A stretch of 10,411 nt of DNA from a virus (lineage: Duplodnaviria; Heunggongvirae; Uroviricota; Caudoviricetes), in IMG/VR virus record IMGVR_UViG_2531839473_000009. The stretch is one strand, 5' to 3'. Shown piece after piece: positions 1-10,411 of the stretch. Under the pieces are notes generated by a model that saw only the letters and a list, made by a program, of their open reading frames with translations, did no database searches and was not told the origin of the DNA. Made by a program: the position numbers and the translations under genes. How positions within the stretch are numbered: position 1 is the first letter of the stretch; every line of letters starts with the position of its first letter.

Positions 1-1242
1 ATGGCGAGAAAAACACCCCCATTAACCACAGTGCAGATCAAAGCAGCCAGACCAGCGCAAAAGGAGTACACCCTACAGGACGGCGGTGGGCTTTTTCTCC
101 TGGTAAAACCGTCCGGATCAAAACTCTGGCGATTTTCCTACTACCGACCATCGGACAAAAAAAGAATATTGCTGAGTTTTGGATCGCTTGAAGATGTTTC
201 CCTGGCTGATGCCAGAAAACGCCGTAGCGAGTACAGGACGTTAATCAGTGCCGGAACTGACCCGCAGGACCATGAGAAGAAAAAACGAGAGGCAGAGGCC
301 CGAAGACAAGGGAACACGTTCGAAAATGTGGCGGCGGCATGGTACCAGGTGAAAATCAGCCAGAATCTGGCCCCCAACACGATTAAAGACATCTGGCGTT
401 CGCTGGATAAATATGTATTCCCGTTCATCGGCAACACGCCAATAGATACCCTCACTGCCCGAAGGTTCGTTGAGGTGCTTACACCCATCAAGGAGCGCGG
501 CAACCTGGAAACACTCAAGCGGGTTTTACAGCGCGTTAATGAGGTAATGGATTACGCCGCCAACAGTGGGCTGATTGATGCCAATCCGGCTATGAATGTG
601 CGTAAGGCGTTCCCCTCCCCTGTAAAAAAACATATGCCAACAATCCGCCCCGAACAGTTGCCGGAGCTTATGCAGGCTTTATCCGTATCAGCAACAGAAC
701 GGCAGACCAGATTACTGATTGAATGGCAGCTACTGACTGTAACCCGTCCGGTTGAAGCATCGTCAGCACGCTGGGAAGAAATCGACATGGACGCGCAACA
801 ATGGACGATCCCCGCCGGACGCATGAAGATGCGGCGTGATCACGTTATCCCGCTTTGTAGTCAGGCTATGGCGGTACTGGAGGCCATGAAGCCAATCAGC
901 CACCACCGCGAGCACGTTTTCCCTAGCCTGAAAGACCCACGGCAGCCTATGAACAGCCAGACCGCCAACGCAGCATTGCGGCGAATGGGATTCGCTGGCG
1001 TGCTGGTGTCTCATGGATTACGCGCCATATTCAGCACAGCAGCGAACGAGGAAGGATTCGAGCCGGACGTAATCGAGGCCGCACTCGCACACGTGGACAC
1101 GAACGAGGTAAGGCGAGCATATAACCGAAGTAACTACCTGGAAAAGCGCGTGGTGCTTATGCGCTGGTGGGGGGAATTTGTAGAGGCCGCAGCAACCGGA
1201 GTGACCATAGCCAGTGGTAAAAGGGGTATCCGTGCCGTGTAA
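1..1242 (+). CDS. int: Tyrosine-type site-specific integrase, P4/CP4-57 family (413 aa, apparently complete)
   Basis: N-terminus MARKTPPLTTVQIKAARP..YTLQDGGGLFLLVKPSGSKLWRFSY matches the arm-binding domain of P4-type integrases. C-terminus HGLRAIFSTAA...ALAHVDTNEVRRAYNRSNYLEKRVVLMRWW carries the H-x-x-R box and the conserved RAY..(catalytic Tyr)..LMxWW tail. ATG at window position 1, so the attachment site and any tRNA target lie upstream, outside the window. Confidence 0.92.
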   Translation: MARKTPPLTTVQIKAARPAQKEYTLQDGGGLFLLVKPSGSKLWRFSYYRPSDKKRILLSFGSLEDVSLADARKRRSEYRTLISAGTDPQDHEKKKREAEARRQGNTFENVAAAWYQVKISQNLAPNTIKDIWRSLDKYVFPFIGNTPIDTLTARRFVEVLTPIKERGNLETLKRVLQRVNEVMDYAANSGLIDANPAMNVRKAFPSPVKKHMPTIRPEQLPELMQALSVSATERQTRLLIEWQLLTVTRPVEASSARWEEIDMDAQQWTIPAGRMKMRRDHVIPLCSQAMAVLEAMKPISHHREHVFPSLKDPRQPMNSQTANAALRRMGFAGVLVSHGLRAIFSTAANEEGFEPDVIEAALAHVDTNEVRRAYNRSNYLEKRVVLMRWWGEFVEAAATGVTIASGKRGIRAV

Positions 1243-1756: not shown

Positions 1757-1963
1757 GTGGAAACAATCAGAAAAATTCTTACCCGTCAGGAAGTAAAAAA
1801 TATTCTGCGCATCAAGGCAGACAGTTCGCTACAGGACATGATCAACGCCGGAAAATTCCCGAAAGGCTTCAAAATCGGTCTGCGCCGTGTTGGCTGGTAT
1901 GAAGATGAAGTGCTGGCCTGGCTGAAAGAGCGCGAGGAAGAAGCGCGCGGAACGGCTGCGTAA
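1757..1963 (+). CDS. alpA: AlpA-family phage transcriptional regulator / excisionase-like DNA-binding protein (68 aa, GTG start)
   Basis: Sequence ..LTRQEVKNILRIKADSSLQDMINAGKFPKGFKIGLRRVGWYEDEVLAWLKER has the AlpA/Vis/TorI signature (G-FPK ... R-VGW-E-EV-AWL). SD GAGGT sits 7 nt upstream of GTG. Position right after int is typical. Confidence 0.85.
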   Translation: METIRKILTRQEVKNILRIKADSSLQDMINAGKFPKGFKIGLRRVGWYEDEVLAWLKEREEEARGTAA

Positions 1964-2111
1964 TGGTGTGAGGCGTAACGCGATGAACATAACAAAAAGC
2001 GCCCCGTTGCCGGAGCGCCCTTGCGAACAATTAACCTGCTGCGAAAAAAATGGATCAGTGCAGTGGAATTATATCAACCGTGTGACGAAGCGCCACAATT
2101 GCCGGATAACA

Positions 2112-2142
2112 GGCAAAACAAAGGCCACCCGCTACGGTGGCC
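2112..2142 (-). terminator. Possible terminator for the leftward small regulator gene
   Basis: Hairpin GGCCACC-CGCTAC-GGTGGCC (2123-2142). On the - strand it is followed by the T-rich run TTTGTTTTG. Lies between the convergent alpA and minus-strand gene. Confidence 0.35.
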
Positions 2143-2245
2143 CCTCGACACAAGCTACACGTTATCCCCAACGCATGAGCATAGCCAACAATGCCACATT
2201 TGCGGCTGGTGGGCAAAGCGTAACCGGAAAAAAATTCCGGTGGAG

Positions 2246-2425
2246 CTACTCCTGCTCTTTGGCCTTGCGGCGCTGGCGGCGTTTGATCTCGCCGCGCATG
2301 GCTGCACTTATAAACTGCCCTGTACTTTCGCCTTCTTCTTTCACGTTTTCCATGCCTTCAATAATTTCATGGGCAATACGTGCAGTTACAGATTGTGATT
2401 TTGCATTCTTTGGACCTGTTGCCAT
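2246..2425 (-). CDS. Small DNA-binding protein (59 aa), candidate ribbon-helix-helix repressor
   Basis: Start chosen at the internal ATG (MATGPKNAKSQSVTARIAHEIIEGMENVKEEGESTGQFISAAMRGEIKRRQRRKAKEQE) because a consensus SD (AAGGAG) lies 6 nt upstream; the longer track ORF (to 2464) lacks one. Pattern of a short beta-strand (SQSVTARI), two helices and a basic tail resembles Arc/CopG/MetJ-type proteins. Transcribed divergently from an operator-rich promoter region. Confidence 0.6.
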   Translation of the reverse strand: MATGPKNAKSQSVTARIAHEIIEGMENVKEEGESTGQFISAAMRGEIKRRQRRKAKEQE

Positions 2426-2445
2426 GTCTAACTCCTTATGTTTTT

Positions 2446-2527
2446 GGTGTAAGACAATATACACGAAAAAAAATTATTTTGAAGGGTTGACGTGTAAGAC
2501 ACTATTATTTTATATTGTGTCTTACAC
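2446..2527. promoter_or_regulatory. Divergent promoter pair with three copies of a GTGTAAGACA(C) operator motif
   Basis: Rightward promoter: TTGACG (2487-2492), 18-bp spacer, TATATT (2511-2516). Leftward promoter on the - strand: TTCAAA, 16-bp spacer, TATATT (+ coordinates 2456-2483). Operator copies: GTGTAAGACA 2447-2456, GTGTAAGACAC 2492-2502 and its perfect inverse GTGTCTTACAC 2517-2527. The copies overlap the -35 and transcription-start regions of both promoters. Confidence 0.6.
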
Positions 2528-2624
2528 CTTGTTGATACAAGGTGCAGAAACGACGAAACCCGGCAGTGCGCTAACACTAACCGGGCTTCTAACCACCAAC
2601 GATAACGAGAGTATCGAGGTAGCT

Positions 2625-3239
2625 ATGTTAAATCATACCATACACCCGCAAGGGCGGGACTCGCACAACCTGAATAAATATATCTGGCGTTTTATCGCCC
2701 TGAGCACAGCACAACCGCGCGTGATTACCATTGAGGCCACCAGCGAACAGGAAGCACGCCAGAAAAACCAGTTGATCGCCATTGCCAGCCAGGGCTATGA
2801 TTTATCCGCACCAGCAAAATCTGGTGCCGGGATTGGCGTCCTGGTATTTAACGAAGCGCACAACACGCGCCCTGCGTGTTTTTTTGTGCCGGATAGTCAC
2901 ACCTTATCAATGGTGGGCTGTATGGGGGCGGAGCAATCCGCGCCGGGTTCTTCGTTAACCGGTTACGCCAACCCTGTACAGTCCACCGCCAGCGAAATTG
3001 GCGTTTCCTGCGGTGGGTTTATTAAACCTAACGAAGAGGCTGCCAACATGGCTACTATCCCTGCCCTCGTACATTCTCAAACTGCCTTTATCTGGCGCTT
3101 TATCATCTTTGGCGCGTCAGAATCCCAAATCATCCACGTAACCGCCTGGACGGAACGCGAAGCGCGTAGTCGTTGCCCGTCCGGTTGTGTTGCTGTATTC
3201 GCCGCCCGTATTCGTCAGGAGGTGCGCCATGTGCAATAA
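2625..3239 (+). CDS. Icd-like (host cell division inhibitor-like) protein, long form with two tandem Icd-like modules (205 aa)
   Basis: First ATG downstream of the rightward promoter, in the only long open frame. N-terminal module MLNHTIHPQGRDSHNLNKYIWRFIALSTAQPRVITIEATSEQEAR carries the HPQGR...IWRF...SE-EAR pattern I associate with Icd-like small proteins of P4-like islands. No stop codon separates it from the second module. The 1968..2624 part of the track ORF is rejected. Confidence 0.35.
   Translation: MLNHTIHPQGRDSHNLNKYIWRFIALSTAQPRVITIEATSEQEARQKNQLIAIASQGYDLSAPAKSGAGIGVLVFNEAHNTRPACFFVPDSHTLSMVGCMGAEQSAPGSSLTGYANPVQSTASEIGVSCGGFIKPNEEAANMATIPALVHSQTAFIWRFIIFGASESQIIHVTAWTEREARSRCPSGCVAVFAARIRQEVRHVQ
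3048..3239 (+). CDS. Icd-like small protein (63 aa), internal in-frame start of the same frame
   Basis: ATG at 3048 preceded by GAAGAGG 8 nt upstream. Product MATIPALVHSQTAFIWRFIIFGASESQIIHVTAWTEREARSRCPSGCVAVFAARIRQEVRHVQ is the more canonical Icd-like module (FIWRF ... EREAR ... FAxR) and has the size typical of that family. Its stop overlaps the next gene start. Confidence 0.45.
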   Translation: MATIPALVHSQTAFIWRFIIFGASESQIIHVTAWTEREARSRCPSGCVAVFAARIRQEVRHVQ

Positions 3240-3684: not shown

Positions 3685-3984
3685 ATGAAACAGAAAAATT
3701 CTGGCTTTACTGCCAGTGGCCTCGCTCGGCCTGAAATCCGCCCCGGCGATATTTTCCGGGATAACTACGGCGGCACGGTAACGATTAAAAGCGTGGCGGG
3801 ACGGTGCGTAACTTACCGCCGTGAAGGTTACGAATATGATTGCGTGATGCCTGTTTATCAGTTCCGGCGTGATTTTTCTCTGGTACAGACCGCGCCGCAT
3901 AACGTGCCCACCAGCAACGCCAGGGCACGGGCAAACATCCAGAAGCTGAAAACCATGATTAACGGATTCAGGGGTAAAAAATGA
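3685..3984 (+). CDS. Hypothetical protein (99 aa) immediately upstream of and coupled to the primase gene
   Basis: ATG at 3685 with GGAGA 9 nt upstream. Its stop overlaps the primase start (ATGA, 3981-3984). Occupies the position held by small helper-interaction genes (epsilon-like) in P4-type left operons, but no sequence similarity can be asserted. Confidence 0.6.
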   Translation: MKQKNSGFTASGLARPEIRPGDIFRDNYGGTVTIKSVAGRCVTYRREGYEYDCVMPVYQFRRDFSLVQTAPHNVPTSNARARANIQKLKTMINGFRGKK

Positions 3985-5735
3985 AACTGGCACCGAACGT
4001 AAAACAGCAGTCACGCGGCATAAAACACAAAGAAACAGAAGTCATTATTTTTGCGGGTAGTGATGCCTGGTCACACGCAAAACAATGGCAGGAACATGAC
4101 GCGCGTCTGGCCGGAGATAATGAGCCTCCTGTGTGGCTTGGGGAGCAGCAGTTATCAGAACTGGATAAGCTGCAAATTGTGCCGGAAGGCAGAAAATCCG
4201 TGCGCATATTCAGGGCCGGATATCTTGCGCCAGTAATGATAAAGGCGATTGGCCAGAAGCTGGCGGCGGCAGGCGTACAGGATGCAAATTTTTATCCTGA
4301 GGGTATGCACGGCCAAGAGGTGCAGAACTGGCGCGAATATCTGGCCCGTGAGCGACAGAATCTTTCTGATGGTCTGGTCATTGAGCTTCCGGTAAAGCAA
4401 AAGGCGCAACTTTCGCAGATGGCGGACAGTGAGCGCGCGCAGCTGCTTGCCGATCGCTTTGATGGCGTTTGCGTACATCCTGAAAGTGAAATCGTTTACG
4501 TATGGCGCGGCGGGGTATGGTGTCCGGTCAGCACAATGGAACTTAGCCGCGAAATGGTGGCGATCTATTCAGAGCACAGGGCCACTTTCAGCAAGCGCGT
4601 AATCAATAACGCCGTGGAAGCGTTAAAAGTTATTGCCGAACCAATGGGCGAGCCGTCCGGCGATTTGCTGCCGTTCGCCAATGGTGCGCTTGACCTGAAA
4701 ACGGGGGAATTTTCCCCGCACACGCCGGAGAACTGGATCACCACGCACAACGGTATTGAGTACACGCCACCAGCACCAGGGGAGAATATCCGCGACAACG
4801 CGCCAAACTTTCATAAATGGCTTGAGCACGTAGCCGGAAAAGACCCGCGCAAGATGATGCGTATATGTGCCGCGCTGTACATGATTATGGCGAACCGGTA
4901 CGACTGGCAGATGTTTATTGAGGCCACCGGAGACGGCGGGAGCGGTAAAAGTACATTCACGCACATAGCCAGCCTTCTGGCAGGGAAACAGAACACGGTG
5001 AGCGCGGAGATGACATCGCTTGATGATGCTGGTGGACGTGCGCAGGTTGTCGGGAGTCGTCTTATCGTCCTGGCTGACCAGCCGAAATATACAGGCGAAG
5101 GAACGGGCATCAAGAAAATCACGGGCGGCGACCCCGTGGAAATTAACCCGAAATATGAAAAGCGTTTTACGGCGGTAATCAGGGCGGTGGTGCTGGCTAC
5201 CAACAATAACCCGATGATATTCACCGAACGGGCCGGAGGTGTGTCACGTCGTCGCATAATTTTCCGTTTCGACAATATCGTCAGTGAGGCCGAAAAAGAC
5301 AGGGAGCTACCGGAAAAGATTGCGGCTGAAATCCCTGTCATTATCCGCCGATTGCTGGCGAACTTTACCGACCCTGAGAAGGCACGGGCTTTACTACTGG
5401 AACAGCGTGACGGTGATGAAGCACTGGCAATAAAGCAACAGACGGATCCGGTTATTGAGTTTTGCCAGTTCCTGAATTTTCTGGAGGAAGCGCGCGGCCT
5501 GATGATGGGTGGCGGTGGTGATTCAGTGAAGTACACGACCAGGAACAGCCTTTATCGCGTCTATCTGGCGTTTATGGCGTACGCAGGCAGGAGCAAACCG
5601 CTAAACGTAAATGACTTTGGCAAGGCTATGAAGCCAGCCGCGAAAGTTTACGGACATAAATATATTACGCGGAAAGTTAAGGGAGTAACGCAGACTAACG
5701 CAATAACAACAGACGAGTGCGACGCGTTTTTATAA
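3981..5735 (+). CDS. Replication initiator: primase / SF3-type helicase (P4 alpha-like / D5 family, 584 aa)
   Basis: Walker A motif ATGDGGSGKST (nt about 4922-4954) and a Walker B-like RLIVLAD a short distance downstream. Large size, position after alpA and directly upstream of an iteron cluster match the pri-rep genes of PICI/P4-like satellites. Confidence 0.88.
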   Translation: MKLAPNVKQQSRGIKHKETEVIIFAGSDAWSHAKQWQEHDARLAGDNEPPVWLGEQQLSELDKLQIVPEGRKSVRIFRAGYLAPVMIKAIGQKLAAAGVQDANFYPEGMHGQEVQNWREYLARERQNLSDGLVIELPVKQKAQLSQMADSERAQLLADRFDGVCVHPESEIVYVWRGGVWCPVSTMELSREMVAIYSEHRATFSKRVINNAVEALKVIAEPMGEPSGDLLPFANGALDLKTGEFSPHTPENWITTHNGIEYTPPAPGENIRDNAPNFHKWLEHVAGKDPRKMMRICAALYMIMANRYDWQMFIEATGDGGSGKSTFTHIASLLAGKQNTVSAEMTSLDDAGGRAQVVGSRLIVLADQPKYTGEGTGIKKITGGDPVEINPKYEKRFTAVIRAVVLATNNNPMIFTERAGGVSRRRIIFRFDNIVSEAEKDRELPEKIAAEIPVIIRRLLANFTDPEKARALLLEQRDGDEALAIKQQTDPVIEFCQFLNFLEEARGLMMGGGGDSVKYTTRNSLYRVYLAFMAYAGRSKPLNVNDFGKAMKPAAKVYGHKYITRKVKGVTQTNAITTDECDAFL

Positions 5736-7136: not shown

Positions 7137-7343
7137 ATGGCTGAAGAGAAAAAAGGCGGTGTTTCGGTGTACATAAGCCCCGAAATCGTGGAGGTGCTCA
7201 AGCAGCGCCACAAAAAAAACTATGAGGCTGGCGTGGCGGCTGGACTGGATCCGCTGATGACGCCGGAGCCGTCGATAGGTTCACTTGTACGCTCTTATTT
7301 ACTTGCGGCGCTTGGGATGCATAAAAATTATGGGGGTGAATAA
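7137..7343 (+). CDS. Hypothetical protein (68 aa), first gene of the capsid module
   Basis: ATG at 7137 with AGAGGA upstream. Stop TAA overlaps the capsid gene ATG (TAATG at 7341-7345). No family recognised. Confidence 0.5.
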   Translation: MAEEKKGGVSVYISPEIVEVLKQRHKKNYEAGVAAGLDPLMTPEPSIGSLVRSYLLAALGMHKNYGGE

Positions 7344-8398
7344 TGGCAGGCAAAGCAACGGCACTTAACACTAACCAGCTTTTCATGTACCTGAATCGCG
7401 GGGATATTGCGGAATTTAAATTCAGTCCGCTGTTTACCACGCTGTTTTTCCCGAACGTGGCGACATTCAACACCCAAAACATCATGCTGGACACCCTGGA
7501 CATTGAAGAGGTTACGATGTCGGCGTTTTGTTCGCCTATGGTGGGTAGTCAGGTCCAGCGCGATAAAGGGTACGAAACCAGCACGATTAAACCTGGATAC
7601 ATGAAGCCGAAGCACGAAATCGATCCAACGAAAACCATCATACGTATGGCTGGAGAAGATCCGGCACAGCTTAATGACCCAACCTATCGCCGTATGCGCC
7701 TGATTACTGGCAACATGCGCCGCCAGATAAACGCGATTAAAGCGCGCGTGGAATGGCTGGCGGTGAATGCGATAACGACCGGAAAAAACATCATTGAGGG
7801 CGAAGGCATAGAACGCTATGAAATCGACTGGAAGATACCGGAAAAAAACATCATAGAGCAGGCCAAAGGCCGTAAATGGTCCGAGCAGGACAAAGAAACC
7901 CACGATCCAATCTATGATATCGAGCTTTATGCGGATCAAGCATGTTGCCCCGCCAACGTCATGATCATGGGCGCTGAGGTATGGCGAACGTTACGCAGCT
8001 TTAAAAAATTCCGCGAACTGTACGATCTTTCCCGTGGTTCAGAGTCCTCCGCAGAGCTGGCCTGTAAAAACCTGGGCGAAGTGGTGAGCTTTAAAGGATA
8101 TCTGGGCGATATTGCCCTTATCGTCTATTCCGGCAAATACACTGACAGCGACGGCACCGAAAAATATTTCCTTGAGCCTGATTTGCTGGTCCTGGGCAAC
8201 ACCAACAATAAAGGGCTGGTGGCCTATGGTGCGATTATGGATCAGGAAGCGGTCAGAACGGGCGCAACGCAAAACATGTTTTACCCGAAAAACTGGATTG
8301 AGGACGGCGATCCGGCGATTGAGTACGTGCAGACGCACAGCGCACCGCAGCCGGTTCCGGCAGATATTCGCAAATTTGTTACCGTCAAAATTGGTTAA
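7343..8398 (+). CDS. Major capsid protein, lambda gpE family (351 aa)
   Basis: Collinear similarity to recalled lambda E along the whole length: FKFSPLFTTLFF versus FKFDPLFLRLFF; PGYMKPKHEIDP versus PGYVKPKHEVNP; DPTYRRMRLI versus DPAYRRRRII; IVYSGKY...LVLGNTNNKGLVAYGAI versus VVYSGQY...MVLGNTQARGLRTYGCI; YPKNWIEDGDPAIEY versus YPKNWVTTGDPAREF; C-terminus FVTVKIG versus FVSVQLA. SD GGGGTG 6 nt upstream. Confidence 0.9.
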   Translation: MAGKATALNTNQLFMYLNRGDIAEFKFSPLFTTLFFPNVATFNTQNIMLDTLDIEEVTMSAFCSPMVGSQVQRDKGYETSTIKPGYMKPKHEIDPTKTIIRMAGEDPAQLNDPTYRRMRLITGNMRRQINAIKARVEWLAVNAITTGKNIIEGEGIERYEIDWKIPEKNIIEQAKGRKWSEQDKETHDPIYDIELYADQACCPANVMIMGAEVWRTLRSFKKFRELYDLSRGSESSAELACKNLGEVVSFKGYLGDIALIVYSGKYTDSDGTEKYFLEPDLLVLGNTNNKGLVAYGAIMDQEAVRTGATQNMFYPKNWIEDGDPAIEYVQTHSAPQPVPADIRKFVTVKIG

Positions 8399-8409
8399 CG
8401 GGGGATTCT

Positions 8410-8745
8410 ATGGACACTCCATACATTGAGTTATTTGCAGGCAGTCAGCAGGTTGCCACGACGCTGGTACATTTTGCCGCTGATGCTGGCGTTATTCAGG
8501 AATTTACCCCGCTGATGCTGGCGGACAATGGCGAATTTAAGCCGTGGGATGGTCAGGAATCTGGCAAGGCTGTTTATCTGACGGCGTATCCCGTGGACAC
8601 GTCAACGCAGAAATCAGCACAGTGTTACAAGACGGGGATATTCAATATTGCCGCCGTTAACTGGCCTGAGAGCGTCGACACCGACGCGAAAAAATGTGCC
8701 GCCTTTGCGGGTTCTGGTGTATCTGTTCAGCCGCTGGCGCGATAA
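8410..8745 (+). CDS. Head decoration protein, lambda gpD family (111 aa)
   Basis: TPLMLADNGEFKPWDG versus lambda D TPLMLDTSSRKLVAWDG; YKTGIFNIAAVNWPESVDTDAKKCAAFAGSGVSV versus [34 protein letters not shown]. Same length class as gpD; SD GGGGGA upstream. Lies downstream of the E-like gene, the opposite order to lambda. Confidence 0.85.
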   Translation: MDTPYIELFAGSQQVATTLVHFAADAGVIQEFTPLMLADNGEFKPWDGQESGKAVYLTAYPVDTSTQKSAQCYKTGIFNIAAVNWPESVDTDAKKCAAFAGSGVSVQPLAR

Positions 8746-8758
8746 GCAGGGGGGAACG

Positions 8759-9172
8759 ATGGCAACGAATGAAAGTATCATGGCGCTACCGCTGGCGAGT
8801 AAATTTAAAGCTGAAGCGCGGGCAATGGCTGACAGATGTCTATCAACCTACGAAGCTATATATCAACTTAACAAACTGGAAGAACAGGACAAGCCGCGCG
8901 CTGATGCGATTATGTCGCTTCATGAATCTGACGACTATCAGCCGCTGTTACGTGCAATGGCAAACGTGCCTTGTATTGATGTTGATACGGCTAAAAACAT
9001 CCTGAACATGACCATAGAACAGGAACGCCAGAAGGTTGCACCAGAGCTTACCGCAGCCTTTGAAAACTTTATGGACATGCACAGCCCACAAGCCGTATCA
9101 GCTGGCATGGCATACGATGGCAGAAACCCGGGCGATGACGGCGACATTGATCGCATACTGAAAACCATCTGA
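8759..9172 (+). CDS. Hypothetical protein (137 aa), last gene of the capsid module
   Basis: ATG at 8759 with G-rich SD (AGGGGGG) 6-8 nt upstream; the longer track ORF start (8648) overlaps the decoration gene and lacks an SD. Acidic C-terminus. Followed by an intrinsic terminator. No family recognised. Confidence 0.55.
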   Translation: MATNESIMALPLASKFKAEARAMADRCLSTYEAIYQLNKLEEQDKPRADAIMSLHESDDYQPLLRAMANVPCIDVDTAKNILNMTIEQERQKVAPELTAAFENFMDMHSPQAVSAGMAYDGRNPGDDGDIDRILKTI

Positions 9173-9177
9173 GACAA

Positions 9178-9200
9178 GGCCGGAGAAATCCGGCTTTTTT
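9178..9200 (+). terminator. Rho-independent terminator after the capsid module (copy of the ssb terminator element)
   Basis: Stem GGCCGGA / TCCGGC with GAAA loop, then T6. The surrounding 9171-9245 is about 75% identical by eye to 6731-6800. Confidence 0.7.
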
Positions 9201-9333
9201 GCGGGTCCTTTCCGGCATATGGACCTGTTACGGGGCGGCGACCTCGCGCGTTTTCACTATTTATGACGTTTTTCCGAGAAGGTGCCACCACCACCACTTG
9301 ATTAATATTTAACCATGCAGTTGAGGTAACATT

Positions 9334-9768
9334 ATGATTGATAAAGCTTGTTTTGTAAGCCAGCAGGAAATAGCTGAACATTTCCAGGTAAACAGAACCA
9401 CTATTCGCGCATGGACCAAACAGGGGATGCCCTATCTTAATGCGGATCGCGGAAAGTCTGGCGGTTATCACATCGGGCATACATTGCTTTGGTCTTCAGG
9501 TAAAAGCCATTTTGAGACCATCGGATATCACGTAGAAACCAGTGCGCTGGAAAAAATTATGGTTGCCAGGCTGCTTTCATCTGAGCGTGACGAGTACTCC
9601 AGTGAAGAAACAGAACATCGATTTGATGAAGGTTTGCAGATTTACGGCTATGCACCGGAAGATGTGAGCAAGGCACGAAATAAAATGGCTGGCTTTCTGG
9701 CTGGGTGGCGTCATGCAGTAAGCGTTCGCCGTGCCAGCATGGAGCAATCAGCCGATACAGAACAGTAA
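9334..9768 (+). CDS. Nu1-like small terminase subunit / winged-HTH DNA-binding protein (144 aa)
   Basis: N-terminus VSQQEIAEHFQVNRTTIRAWTKQGMPYLNADRGKSGG resembles lambda Nu1 KKQLADIFGASIRTIQNWQEQGMPVLRGGGKGNE (the TI..W...GMP.L....GK motif of its winged helix). About 35 aa shorter than Nu1 with an unrelated C-terminal half. SD GAGGT 5 nt upstream. A MerR-like regulator cannot be excluded. Confidence 0.55.
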   Translation: MIDKACFVSQQEIAEHFQVNRTTIRAWTKQGMPYLNADRGKSGGYHIGHTLLWSSGKSHFETIGYHVETSALEKIMVARLLSSERDEYSSEETEHRFDEGLQIYGYAPEDVSKARNKMAGFLAGWRHAVSVRRASMEQSADTEQ

Positions 9769-9926
9769 AGCCGATAACTTGTTAATCACTCGCAGCAATG
9801 CATGTGATTTGTGCACACTTTCGGTTAACTGGTTCGATGTCCGGTTTTAGTGTCTGTTTTTTGCGCATGTCCGGTTCATGGAAAGCATGTTTTTATATTT
9901 TTCATATGGTTAACTTACAGAGAAAC

Positions 9927-10411
9927 TGGATTTGCCCCTATATTTCCAGACATCTGTTATCACTTAACCCATTACAAGCCCGCTGCCGCAGATATTCCCG
10001 TGGCGAGCGATAACCCAGCGCACTATGCGGATGCCATTCGTTATAATGCTCGAACGCCTCTGCAAGGTTCTTTGCTGCCGTTAACCCGTCTGGTTTGGGC
10101 ATGATACTGATGTAGTCACGCTTTATCGTTTTCACGAAGCTCTCTGCTATTCCGTTACTCTCCGGACTCCGCACCGCCGTGTTCTTCGGTTCAAGTCCCA
10201 ACATCCGGGCGAACTGGCGTGTTTCATTAGCCCGGTAGCATGAACCATTATCCGTCAGCCACTCCACTGGAGACGACGGAAGATCGTTGCCGAAGCGGCG
10301 TTCCACCGCTCCCAGCATGACGTCCTGTACTGTTTCACTGTTGAAGCCGCCAGTAGTCACCGCCCAGTGCAGTGCCTCACGATCACAGCAGTCCAGCGCG
10401 AACGTGACACG
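9927..10411 (-). mobile_element. IS2 (IS3 family), right end and 3' part, truncated by the window edge
   Basis: Terminal sequence TGGATTTGCCCCTATATTTCCAGACATCTGTTATCACTTAACC matches the remembered IS2 end adjacent to the orfB stop, including the conserved TTTCCAGACA...TATCACTTAA inverted-repeat core. Element boundary placed at about 9927. Target-site duplication cannot be checked because the other end is outside the window. Confidence 0.8.
9938..10411 (-). CDS. insD: IS2 transposase OrfB (InsD), C-terminal part; 5' end outside the window
   Basis: The reverse frame is open to the window edge (..[40 protein letters not shown]...[19 protein letters not shown]...[24 protein letters not shown]). 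It matches the IS2 InsD C-terminus from memory and has the DDE-domain tail typical of IS3-family OrfB. Confidence 0.9.

Follow-up and report, generated by a model that had tools for sequence, protein, structure and literature searches.

Among the described systems, the Gram-negative PICI EcCICFT073 provides the main point of comparison for the locus analysed here. In this island, c1499 and c1500 are homologues of capsid and decoration genes (PMC6092414), and c1503, named rppA, encodes a protein of 144 residues that is ~44% identical to RppC (PMC6739421; Fillol-Salom et al. 2019). EcCICFT073 has been reported to be packaged in phage-sized capsids, and deletion of c1499 or c1500 shifted its transfer modestly (PMC6092414). 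Crystal structures are available for RppC alone (6HLK) and for RppC with residues 1-98 of lambda TerS (6HN7); Rpp dimers mimic the dimer interface of the TerS DNA-binding domain, with helix alpha6 packing on the extended helix alpha3 of TerS, and in the resulting heterocomplex recognition of phage cosB is lost and the cosB of cos1 is recognised (PMC6739421). The helper TerS is still needed, probably as the supplier of the TerL-binding domain (PMC9026076). As mutants of RppA have shown, cos1-directed packaging requires R21 and T22, TerS binding requires L51 and homodimerisation requires F121 (PMC6739421). On the DNA side, cosQ and cosN are conserved among PICIs (PMC9026076, PMC6739421), and bp 48-65 has been proposed by Murialdo and Feiss as an Rpp-binding 'R3-PICI' (PMC9026076). 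Furthermore, E. coli PICIs that encode TerS have already been noted (PMC6092414).

The window, that is, the whole stretch of 10,411 nucleotides that was analysed, matches a section of contig GL872041.1 (GCA_000190955.1) at 100% identity and, up to an IS2 element that runs off its end, IS2-free twins, AP025751 among them, at 99.97%. The island is flanked by yejM and yejO, and tRNA-Pro directly precedes the integrase gene in the related strains Nissle 1917 and FDAARGOS_943. The gene order is int, alpA, an Ash-family gene, a DUF4222 gene, primase, SSB, capsid, decoration, the gene for a 137-aa protein, cos1 and rpp (Table 1), followed on the 3' side of rpp by an inverted second cos (cos2), ORFs of 93 and 99 aa, and perC. 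Genes for int, alpA and pri-rep are present, terL, tail and lysis genes are absent, and from the DUF4222 gene on the backbone shares 92-94% identity with EcCICFT073. This gene content is that of a Gram-negative PICI, here integrated at tRNA-Pro/yejM-yejO.

Table 1. Features of the island in the window (position 1 is the first letter of the window; bp numbers are counted from the start of cosN)
Feature	Position	Strand	Basis or remark
Integrase, tyrosine recombinase, 413 aa, left PICI end	1-1242	+	Pfam Arm-DNA-bind_3 / Phage_integrase on the identical gene of GL872041.1
alpA-type activator	1757-1963	+	Pfam Phage_AlpA, E=4.5e-8
Primase/replicase (D5_N, DUF5906)	3981-5735	+	
Head-gene homologues	7343-9172	+	Match c1499, c1500 and c1501 of EcCICFT073 (PMC6092414)
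gpE-like capsid	7343-8398	+	
gpD-like decoration	8410-8745	+	
137-aa protein resembling the C-terminus of a head maturation protease, possibly scaffold-like	8759-9172	+	
Terminator-like GC-rich hairpin and T-run	9176-9200	+	Closes the head-gene cluster, directly 5' of cosQ
cosQ-like heptamer GGGTCCT	9203-9209	+	Cohesive end begins 30 bp from its first base; alignment with lambda ends
cosN cohesive end GGGCGGCGACCT	9233-9244	+	Identical to lambda; alignment with lambda and CFT073 cos1
cosB / proposed R3-PICI, AGGTGCCACCACCACCAC	9280-9297 (bp 48-65)	+	Candidate Rpp site
Shine-Dalgarno-like GAGG	9323-9326	+	7 nt 5' of the rpp ATG; direct sequence reading
rpp (RppA-type), 144 aa and stop	9334-9768	+	ORF list, ATG start
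Winged-HTH DNA-binding domain (Rpp residues 1-64)	9334-9525	+	
Helical dimerisation and TerS-contact domain (Rpp residues 65-144)	9526-9765	+	
GAAAC, 5-bp target duplication of IS2	9922-9926	.	GL872041.1 against the IS2-free twin AP025751
IS2, partial, runs off the window	9927-10411	-	NCBIfam match and end comparison

Two further observations concern the gene map itself. A 68-aa protein (phrog_3255) is also encoded in the head region, which then spans 7137-9172. The 423-aa ORF with a GTG start at 1968-3239 is probably not a single gene; within it, the identical contig calls a 59-aa minus-strand ORF (~2246-2425), at the homologous position of which a YlcI/YnfO-family protein is annotated in CFT073 and ZH063, and a 204-aa Ash-family protein (~2625-3239). 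This region is unlike EcCICFT073.

The product of 9334-9768 appears to be an RppA-type 'redirecting phage packaging' protein of the Gram-negative PICI, a reading to which we assign a probability of about 0.9. It shares 137 of its 144 residues (95%) with RppA (c1503) of EcCICFT073 in CFT073, and when complete E. coli genomes were searched at the DNA level, the gene proved to be 97.5% identical in that strain. The CFT073 counterpart is located at NC_004431 1387659-1388093, after the capsid, decoration and 137-aa genes; because gene order and size in CFT073 match this ORF alone, we equated it with c1503/rppA. When all PDB chains were searched with phmmer, one strong match was obtained, to RppC (6hlk_A of 6HLK/6HN7; E=6.5e-31), which extends over residues 2-125 and includes both domains. 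The identity across the alignment is 43%, being higher for the DNA-binding domain (49%) than for the C-terminal one (36%). Because the C-terminal half is homologous to alpha4-alpha6 of RppC, we assign it to the known dimerisation and TerS-clamping domain of Rpp proteins. The residues R21, T22, L51 and F121 are all kept in the translation. Given that the protein is an allele of one that has been characterised both experimentally and structurally, it is to be considered already known, even if public annotations still describe the gene product as a 'hypothetical protein' and NCBIfam has no Rpp model, returning only a sub-threshold BldC HTH match.

A word-indexed homologue search yielded 16 proteins, all without names, a set that does not allow an alignment of any depth. 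Fifteen homologues, drawn from Escherichia, Klebsiella, Phytobacter and Salmonella, were aligned; across them, the HTH and the wing (V8-K29 and A37-H49) are almost wholly invariant, R21, T22 and F121 are fully so, and the variable stretches are residues ~54-67 and the C-terminal tail. An AlphaFold2 model built from these 15 sequences was poor (mean pLDDT 56.7), with helices at residues 10-17, 21-29, 71-85, 91-103 and 108-143 and the wing absent; the helices of this low-confidence model are compatible with a winged HTH followed by an alpha4-alpha6 coiled-coil dimer fold. A Foldseek search of the same model against the PDB gave nothing at E<=1e-3, all matches having E>0.7, with MerR proteins nominally first. 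The identity of the protein is argued from its sequence match to RppC, the structure of which is solved, and not from the model.

The ORF itself is genuine and intact. Codon analysis against distant alleles gave a dN/dS of 0.08-0.19, indicative of purifying selection. An antisense ORF of 180 aa at 8938-9480, which overlaps rpp, was rejected because stop codons interrupt its CFT073 counterpart. A promoter scan found no sigma-70-like promoter for rpp between the upstream hairpin at 9176-9200 and the ATG. This hairpin was not listed by a simple terminator scan and was confirmed through folding (RNA fold of -18.6 kcal/mol, z=-3.55); it is kept in CFT073 and Nissle.

The sequence-only reading of this region had proposed that the 144-aa ORF carries the DNA-binding signature of the lambda small terminase Nu1 in its N-terminal part and that its C-terminal half does not resemble the part of Nu1 that contacts the large terminase. 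Both parts of this description proved correct. The PHROG family phrog_57 ('terminase small subunit') matched residues 7-46 with E=4.4e-8, the Pfam family Phage_Nu1 (PF07471) scored 14.7 bits over residues 8-37, under its cut-off of 30 bits, and the suggested alignment to lambda Nu1 gave, in BLASTP, 33% identity confined to residues 8-56 (~49 residues), with the N-terminal domains of lambda TerS in the PDB matched at E~0.1-0.2. Past residue ~56, neither Pfam Phage_Nu1 nor BLASTP aligned anything to Nu1, and this portion of the protein matches the Rpp domain instead. The likeness to Nu1, as judged from these alignments, is thus weak yet real and restricted to the N-terminus. With no full-length match to PF07471 and no adjoining large terminase, the protein falls outside the Nu1-type small terminases.

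The same reading had maintained that no large terminase precedes the downstream element, which it took for an IS2, and it stands on both counts. The ORF list of the window holds no terminase-sized ORF between the rpp stop at 9768 and the IS2, and a large terminase is likewise absent downstream in the IS2-free homologues AP025751, CFT073 and ZH063, up to the chromosomal flank. The element is identified by its transposase fragment at 9938-10360 on the minus strand (NCBIfam 'IS2 transposase TnpB', E=6.8e-97) and by its end, the IS2 terminal repeat TGGATTTGCCCC beginning at 9927. Its length in GL872041.1 is 1163 bp (within 10589-11761 of locus L012); canonical IS2 is longer, ~1.33 kb. The cosQ and cosN of cos2 lie beyond the end of the window. 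In another E. coli record, H75, an IS2 near a related island was considered as a counterpart and rejected, as it lies within yejO and represents a different insertion.

Seven substitutions separate the protein from RppA (window residue first: Q18K, H59R, F60L, T62A, G64R, V77F and A107S), and six of these (at 59, 60, 62, 64, 77 and 107) are located past residue 56, so that helper range or affinity could differ from that of RppA. In the C-terminal part, the two alleles differ by six non-synonymous changes and one synonymous change, giving a pairwise dN/dS of 1.66, with too few changes for positive selection to be read from it. Residues 59, 60, 62 and 64 (9508-9525) hold four of the seven differences; the DNA-binding domain ends here, and the family alignment varies more in this stretch than anywhere else. 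This cluster, at 59-64, may retune the choice of the helper TerS that is captured.

The DNA upstream of rpp has the organisation of the functional cos1 of EcCICFT073. The heptamer GGGTCCT is found in lambda at the same distance from the cohesive end, and the cosN copy listed in Table 1 is the sole exact match to GGGCGGCGACCT within the 10,411-nt window. Counting the start of cosN as bp 1, the ATG of rpp falls at bp 102, the position that has also been reported for PICI-C (PMC9026076). The similarity to lambdoid phage DNA is limited to ~9196-9280 and ends at ~bp 47, with bp 13-47 being 77% identical to lambda. The following segment, bp 48-65, is identical at 17 of 18 positions to the functional cos1 of EcCICFT073, the difference being at bp 53, and is unrelated to lambda R3. 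Within this segment, at 9286-9297, lies the 12-mer CACCACCACCAC, which is present in one copy per locus, at the same place ~54-65 bp past cosN, in every Rpp locus examined, these being the E. coli RppA and RppB loci and those of Klebsiella, Phytobacter and Salmonella (start positions in the compared loci: L013 2950, L015 2525, L017 2953, L019 2522 and L021 2953, with L015 and L019 from Salmonella). The motif is retained where the cosN sequence differs, for example in RppB-type islands, and it is still present in the Salmonella loci, which have an extra 141-aa ORF between cos and rpp. The conservation of CACCACCACCAC together with the invariant HTH supports the R3-PICI proposal, short of proving binding, and the cosB segment that bears the motif is likely to be the binding site of Rpp. 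The invariance of the motif across genera is modest new comparative information.

In the Salmonella loci (L015 and L019; 3001-6429), genes resembling the head-completion and tail genes FI, FII, Z and U of lambda follow directly 3' of the rpp homologue. This gene order suggests that the Salmonella rpp islands are embedded in the late operon of a lambdoid prophage, an arrangement that we liken to the helper-embedded PICIs described in PMC10111431.

Given the 95% identity to RppA and the conservation of both the tested residues and cos1, the mechanism established for RppA very probably applies to the present allele as well. The steps of this mechanism are assigned by homology to RppA and RppC; what the sequence itself provides is the identity of the gene, the presence of the tested residues, the layout of cos and the lack of a TerL gene. 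During growth of a lambda-like helper, a dimer of Rpp would capture monomers of the helper TerS/Nu1 through its N-terminal winged HTH, which would mimic the TerS DNA-binding domain, and through its C-terminal helical domain, yielding a TerS-Rpp2-TerS heterocomplex. This complex would be blind to phage cosB, such that phage packaging would be blocked, and would recognise the island cosB through the segment with CACCACCACCAC, 48-65 bp past cosN and ~100 bp 5' of rpp. The helper TerL, presumably recruited by the C-terminus that the captured TerS leaves free, would then nick the island cosN, and the island DNA would be packaged into helper-made particles. The suggestion of the sequence-only reading that a satellite uses a TerS-like protein without a cognate TerL to redirect the terminase of a helper agrees, by homology, with the published function of Rpp (PMC6739421). 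The published mechanism is more specific in that a heterocomplex with the helper TerS is formed instead of the helper TerS being replaced; because Rpp forms a TerS-Rpp2-TerS heterocomplex, the helper TerS stays required.

Several other interpretations have to be weighed against an Rpp function of this kind. The protein could be a small terminase in degenerate or minimal form, binding the island cos and recruiting the helper TerL directly, without the helper TerS, in the manner of SaPI TerS. Its N-terminal winged HTH is Nu1-like, the gene is placed 3' of cos at exactly the position of Nu1 in lambda, and sister islands hold a genuine full-length Nu1-family TerS in this slot. Nevertheless, we regard this possibility as very improbable, given that the protein has no similarity to the oligomerisation or TerL-binding regions of Nu1, that its C-terminal half is homologous to the alpha4-alpha6 domain of RppC, and that deletion of the helper terS abolishes the transfer of the RppA island, with TerS escape mutants losing transfer as well (PMC6092414, PMC6739421). 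The HTH could, alternatively, belong to a transcriptional regulator of island genes, of the MerR/BldC or excisionase type, with no role in packaging. The HTH matches on which such an assignment would draw are only ~20-30 residues long and far under the family cut-offs (MerR_1, 15.8 bits against 21.6; MerR, 13.2 against 28.2; BldC, 17.1 against 77), whereas the full-length match is to Rpp; moreover, the invariant DNA motif is part of cosB, where its spacing to cosN is constant, and not of a promoter, and the genetics of RppA link the protein to packaging (PMC6739421). A structure of the MerR type, unrelated to Nu1, had been named as evidence that would count against a packaging role; the solved winged HTH of RppC superposes on the DNA-binding domain of lambda TerS, with which RppC has been co-crystallised (PMC6739421). 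A regulatory role is, in our estimate, extremely improbable. An Xis/AlpA-like reading of the HTH was also considered and rejected.

It is conceivable, too, that a functional Rpp now serves mainly as an anti-phage interference factor in this island, the IS2 having impaired the mobility of the island. The insertion is located in the cosB-equivalent of the inverted cos2, at bp 57/58 of that site and 154 bp past the rpp stop. Against an effect of this kind, cos1, rpp, int, alpA and the primase gene are intact, the rest of the island and the right flank persist beyond the IS2 in GL872041.1, and transfer of EcCICFT073 proceeds with cos1 alone and rises when cos2 is deleted (PMC6092414). We therefore consider a predominant role in interference improbable.

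The comparison with sister islands indicates that the slot occupied by rpp has two alternative contents. The segment cosB-rpp-cosB' (window 9196-9926) is flanked by two inverted cosQ-cosN cores. Nissle 1917 and the lineage of the window are 95% identical until ~42 bp past the cosN of cos1 and again from ~bp 47 of cos2; the intervening segment comprises 662 bp of cosB-rpp-cosB' in AP025751 (9942-10603, locus L009) and 789 bp in Nissle 1917 (12507-13295, locus L005). The Nissle segment encodes a full-length Nu1-family TerS of 180 aa with an end-to-end identity of 35% to lambda Nu1. Cassettes of this terS type are found in the sister islands of Nissle 1917, O157:H7 and O145, and both cassette types were found at both integration sites. 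The terS cassette is present near full-length in 595 of 5426 complete E. coli genomes and an rppA/B-type gene in 97 of 5426, terS thus being ~6 times commoner. In the cosB of the Nissle type (12508-12530 in L005), the triplet repeat of CACCACCACCAC occurs inverted (GGTGGTGGTGG) at the equivalent position.

From these alignments, we tentatively propose, as one possible reading that we hold to be rather unlikely, that cosB1-rpp-cosB2 constitutes an exchangeable cassette of packaging specificity, for which the cos cores would supply the homology for swapping. The choice of cassette may then determine whether the helper TerS is hijacked by rpp or replaced by a full-length terS. No published description of the cassette boundaries was found in the literature searched. 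If true, the cassette reading would answer a published open question, namely, the reason for the presence of two cos sites in such islands.

Taken together, these results add nothing new on the mechanism as far as this copy of rpp is concerned, and the cassette-like occurrence of either rpp or terS between the inverted cos cores contributes modest new information on the evolution of packaging specificity in satellites. Rpp is a means by which pathogenicity-type islands of E. coli spread at the cost of a helper, which is suppressed, and recognition of rpp together with cos allows the present island to be annotated as a mobilisable cos PICI and not as a dead prophage remnant.

With respect to known systems, the locus is most readily compared with RppA of EcCICFT073, with which it shares the protein length of 144 aa, residues R21, T22, L51 and F121, the order cosQ-cosN-cosB(CACCACCACCAC)-rpp, a start codon at bp 102 and, as neighbours, the genes for the capsid, the decoration and the 137-aa proteins. 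It differs in the seven substitutions of the window allele and in one base of cosB (bp 53). The islands themselves differ in the integrase and its site (roxA-phoQ in CFT073 and tRNA-Pro/yejM-yejO in the window island), in the alpA-proximal accessory region, and in the IS2 that the window island has in cos2. RppC of EcCIEC2733.1 is homologous over residues 2-125 and has the same two-domain plan of a winged HTH and a helical dimerisation domain, but it is longer (153 aa), only 43% identical and poorly conserved in the residues of the dimer interface; RppA and RppC form no heterodimer, and TerS is bound more tightly by RppC (PMC6739421).

Lambda gpNu1 resembles the protein in its N-terminal winged HTH and in the position of its gene directly 3' of cosN/cosB. 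In contrast to gpNu1, Rpp lacks the central oligomerisation domain, the C-terminal TerL-binding domain and an adjoining terL, has a different recognition sequence, and works only jointly with TerS (PMC6739421). The TerS proteins of the sister PICIs (Nissle 1917 and O157:H7 TW14359) occupy the same slot between the same inverted cos cores, in islands that are otherwise 88-95% identical and that likewise have no TerL on the 3' side; unlike Rpp, to which they have no detectable similarity, they are Nu1-like across the C-terminal region as well and would presumably recruit TerL directly, by analogy with SaPI TerS. Finally, SaPI TerS together with Ppi in Staphylococcus aureus also redirects the packaging of the helper to the satellite and blocks the helper (PMC6739421). 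That system, however, employs two proteins, operates by headful (pac) packaging and has no homology to Rpp, which combines both jobs in one protein at a cos site.
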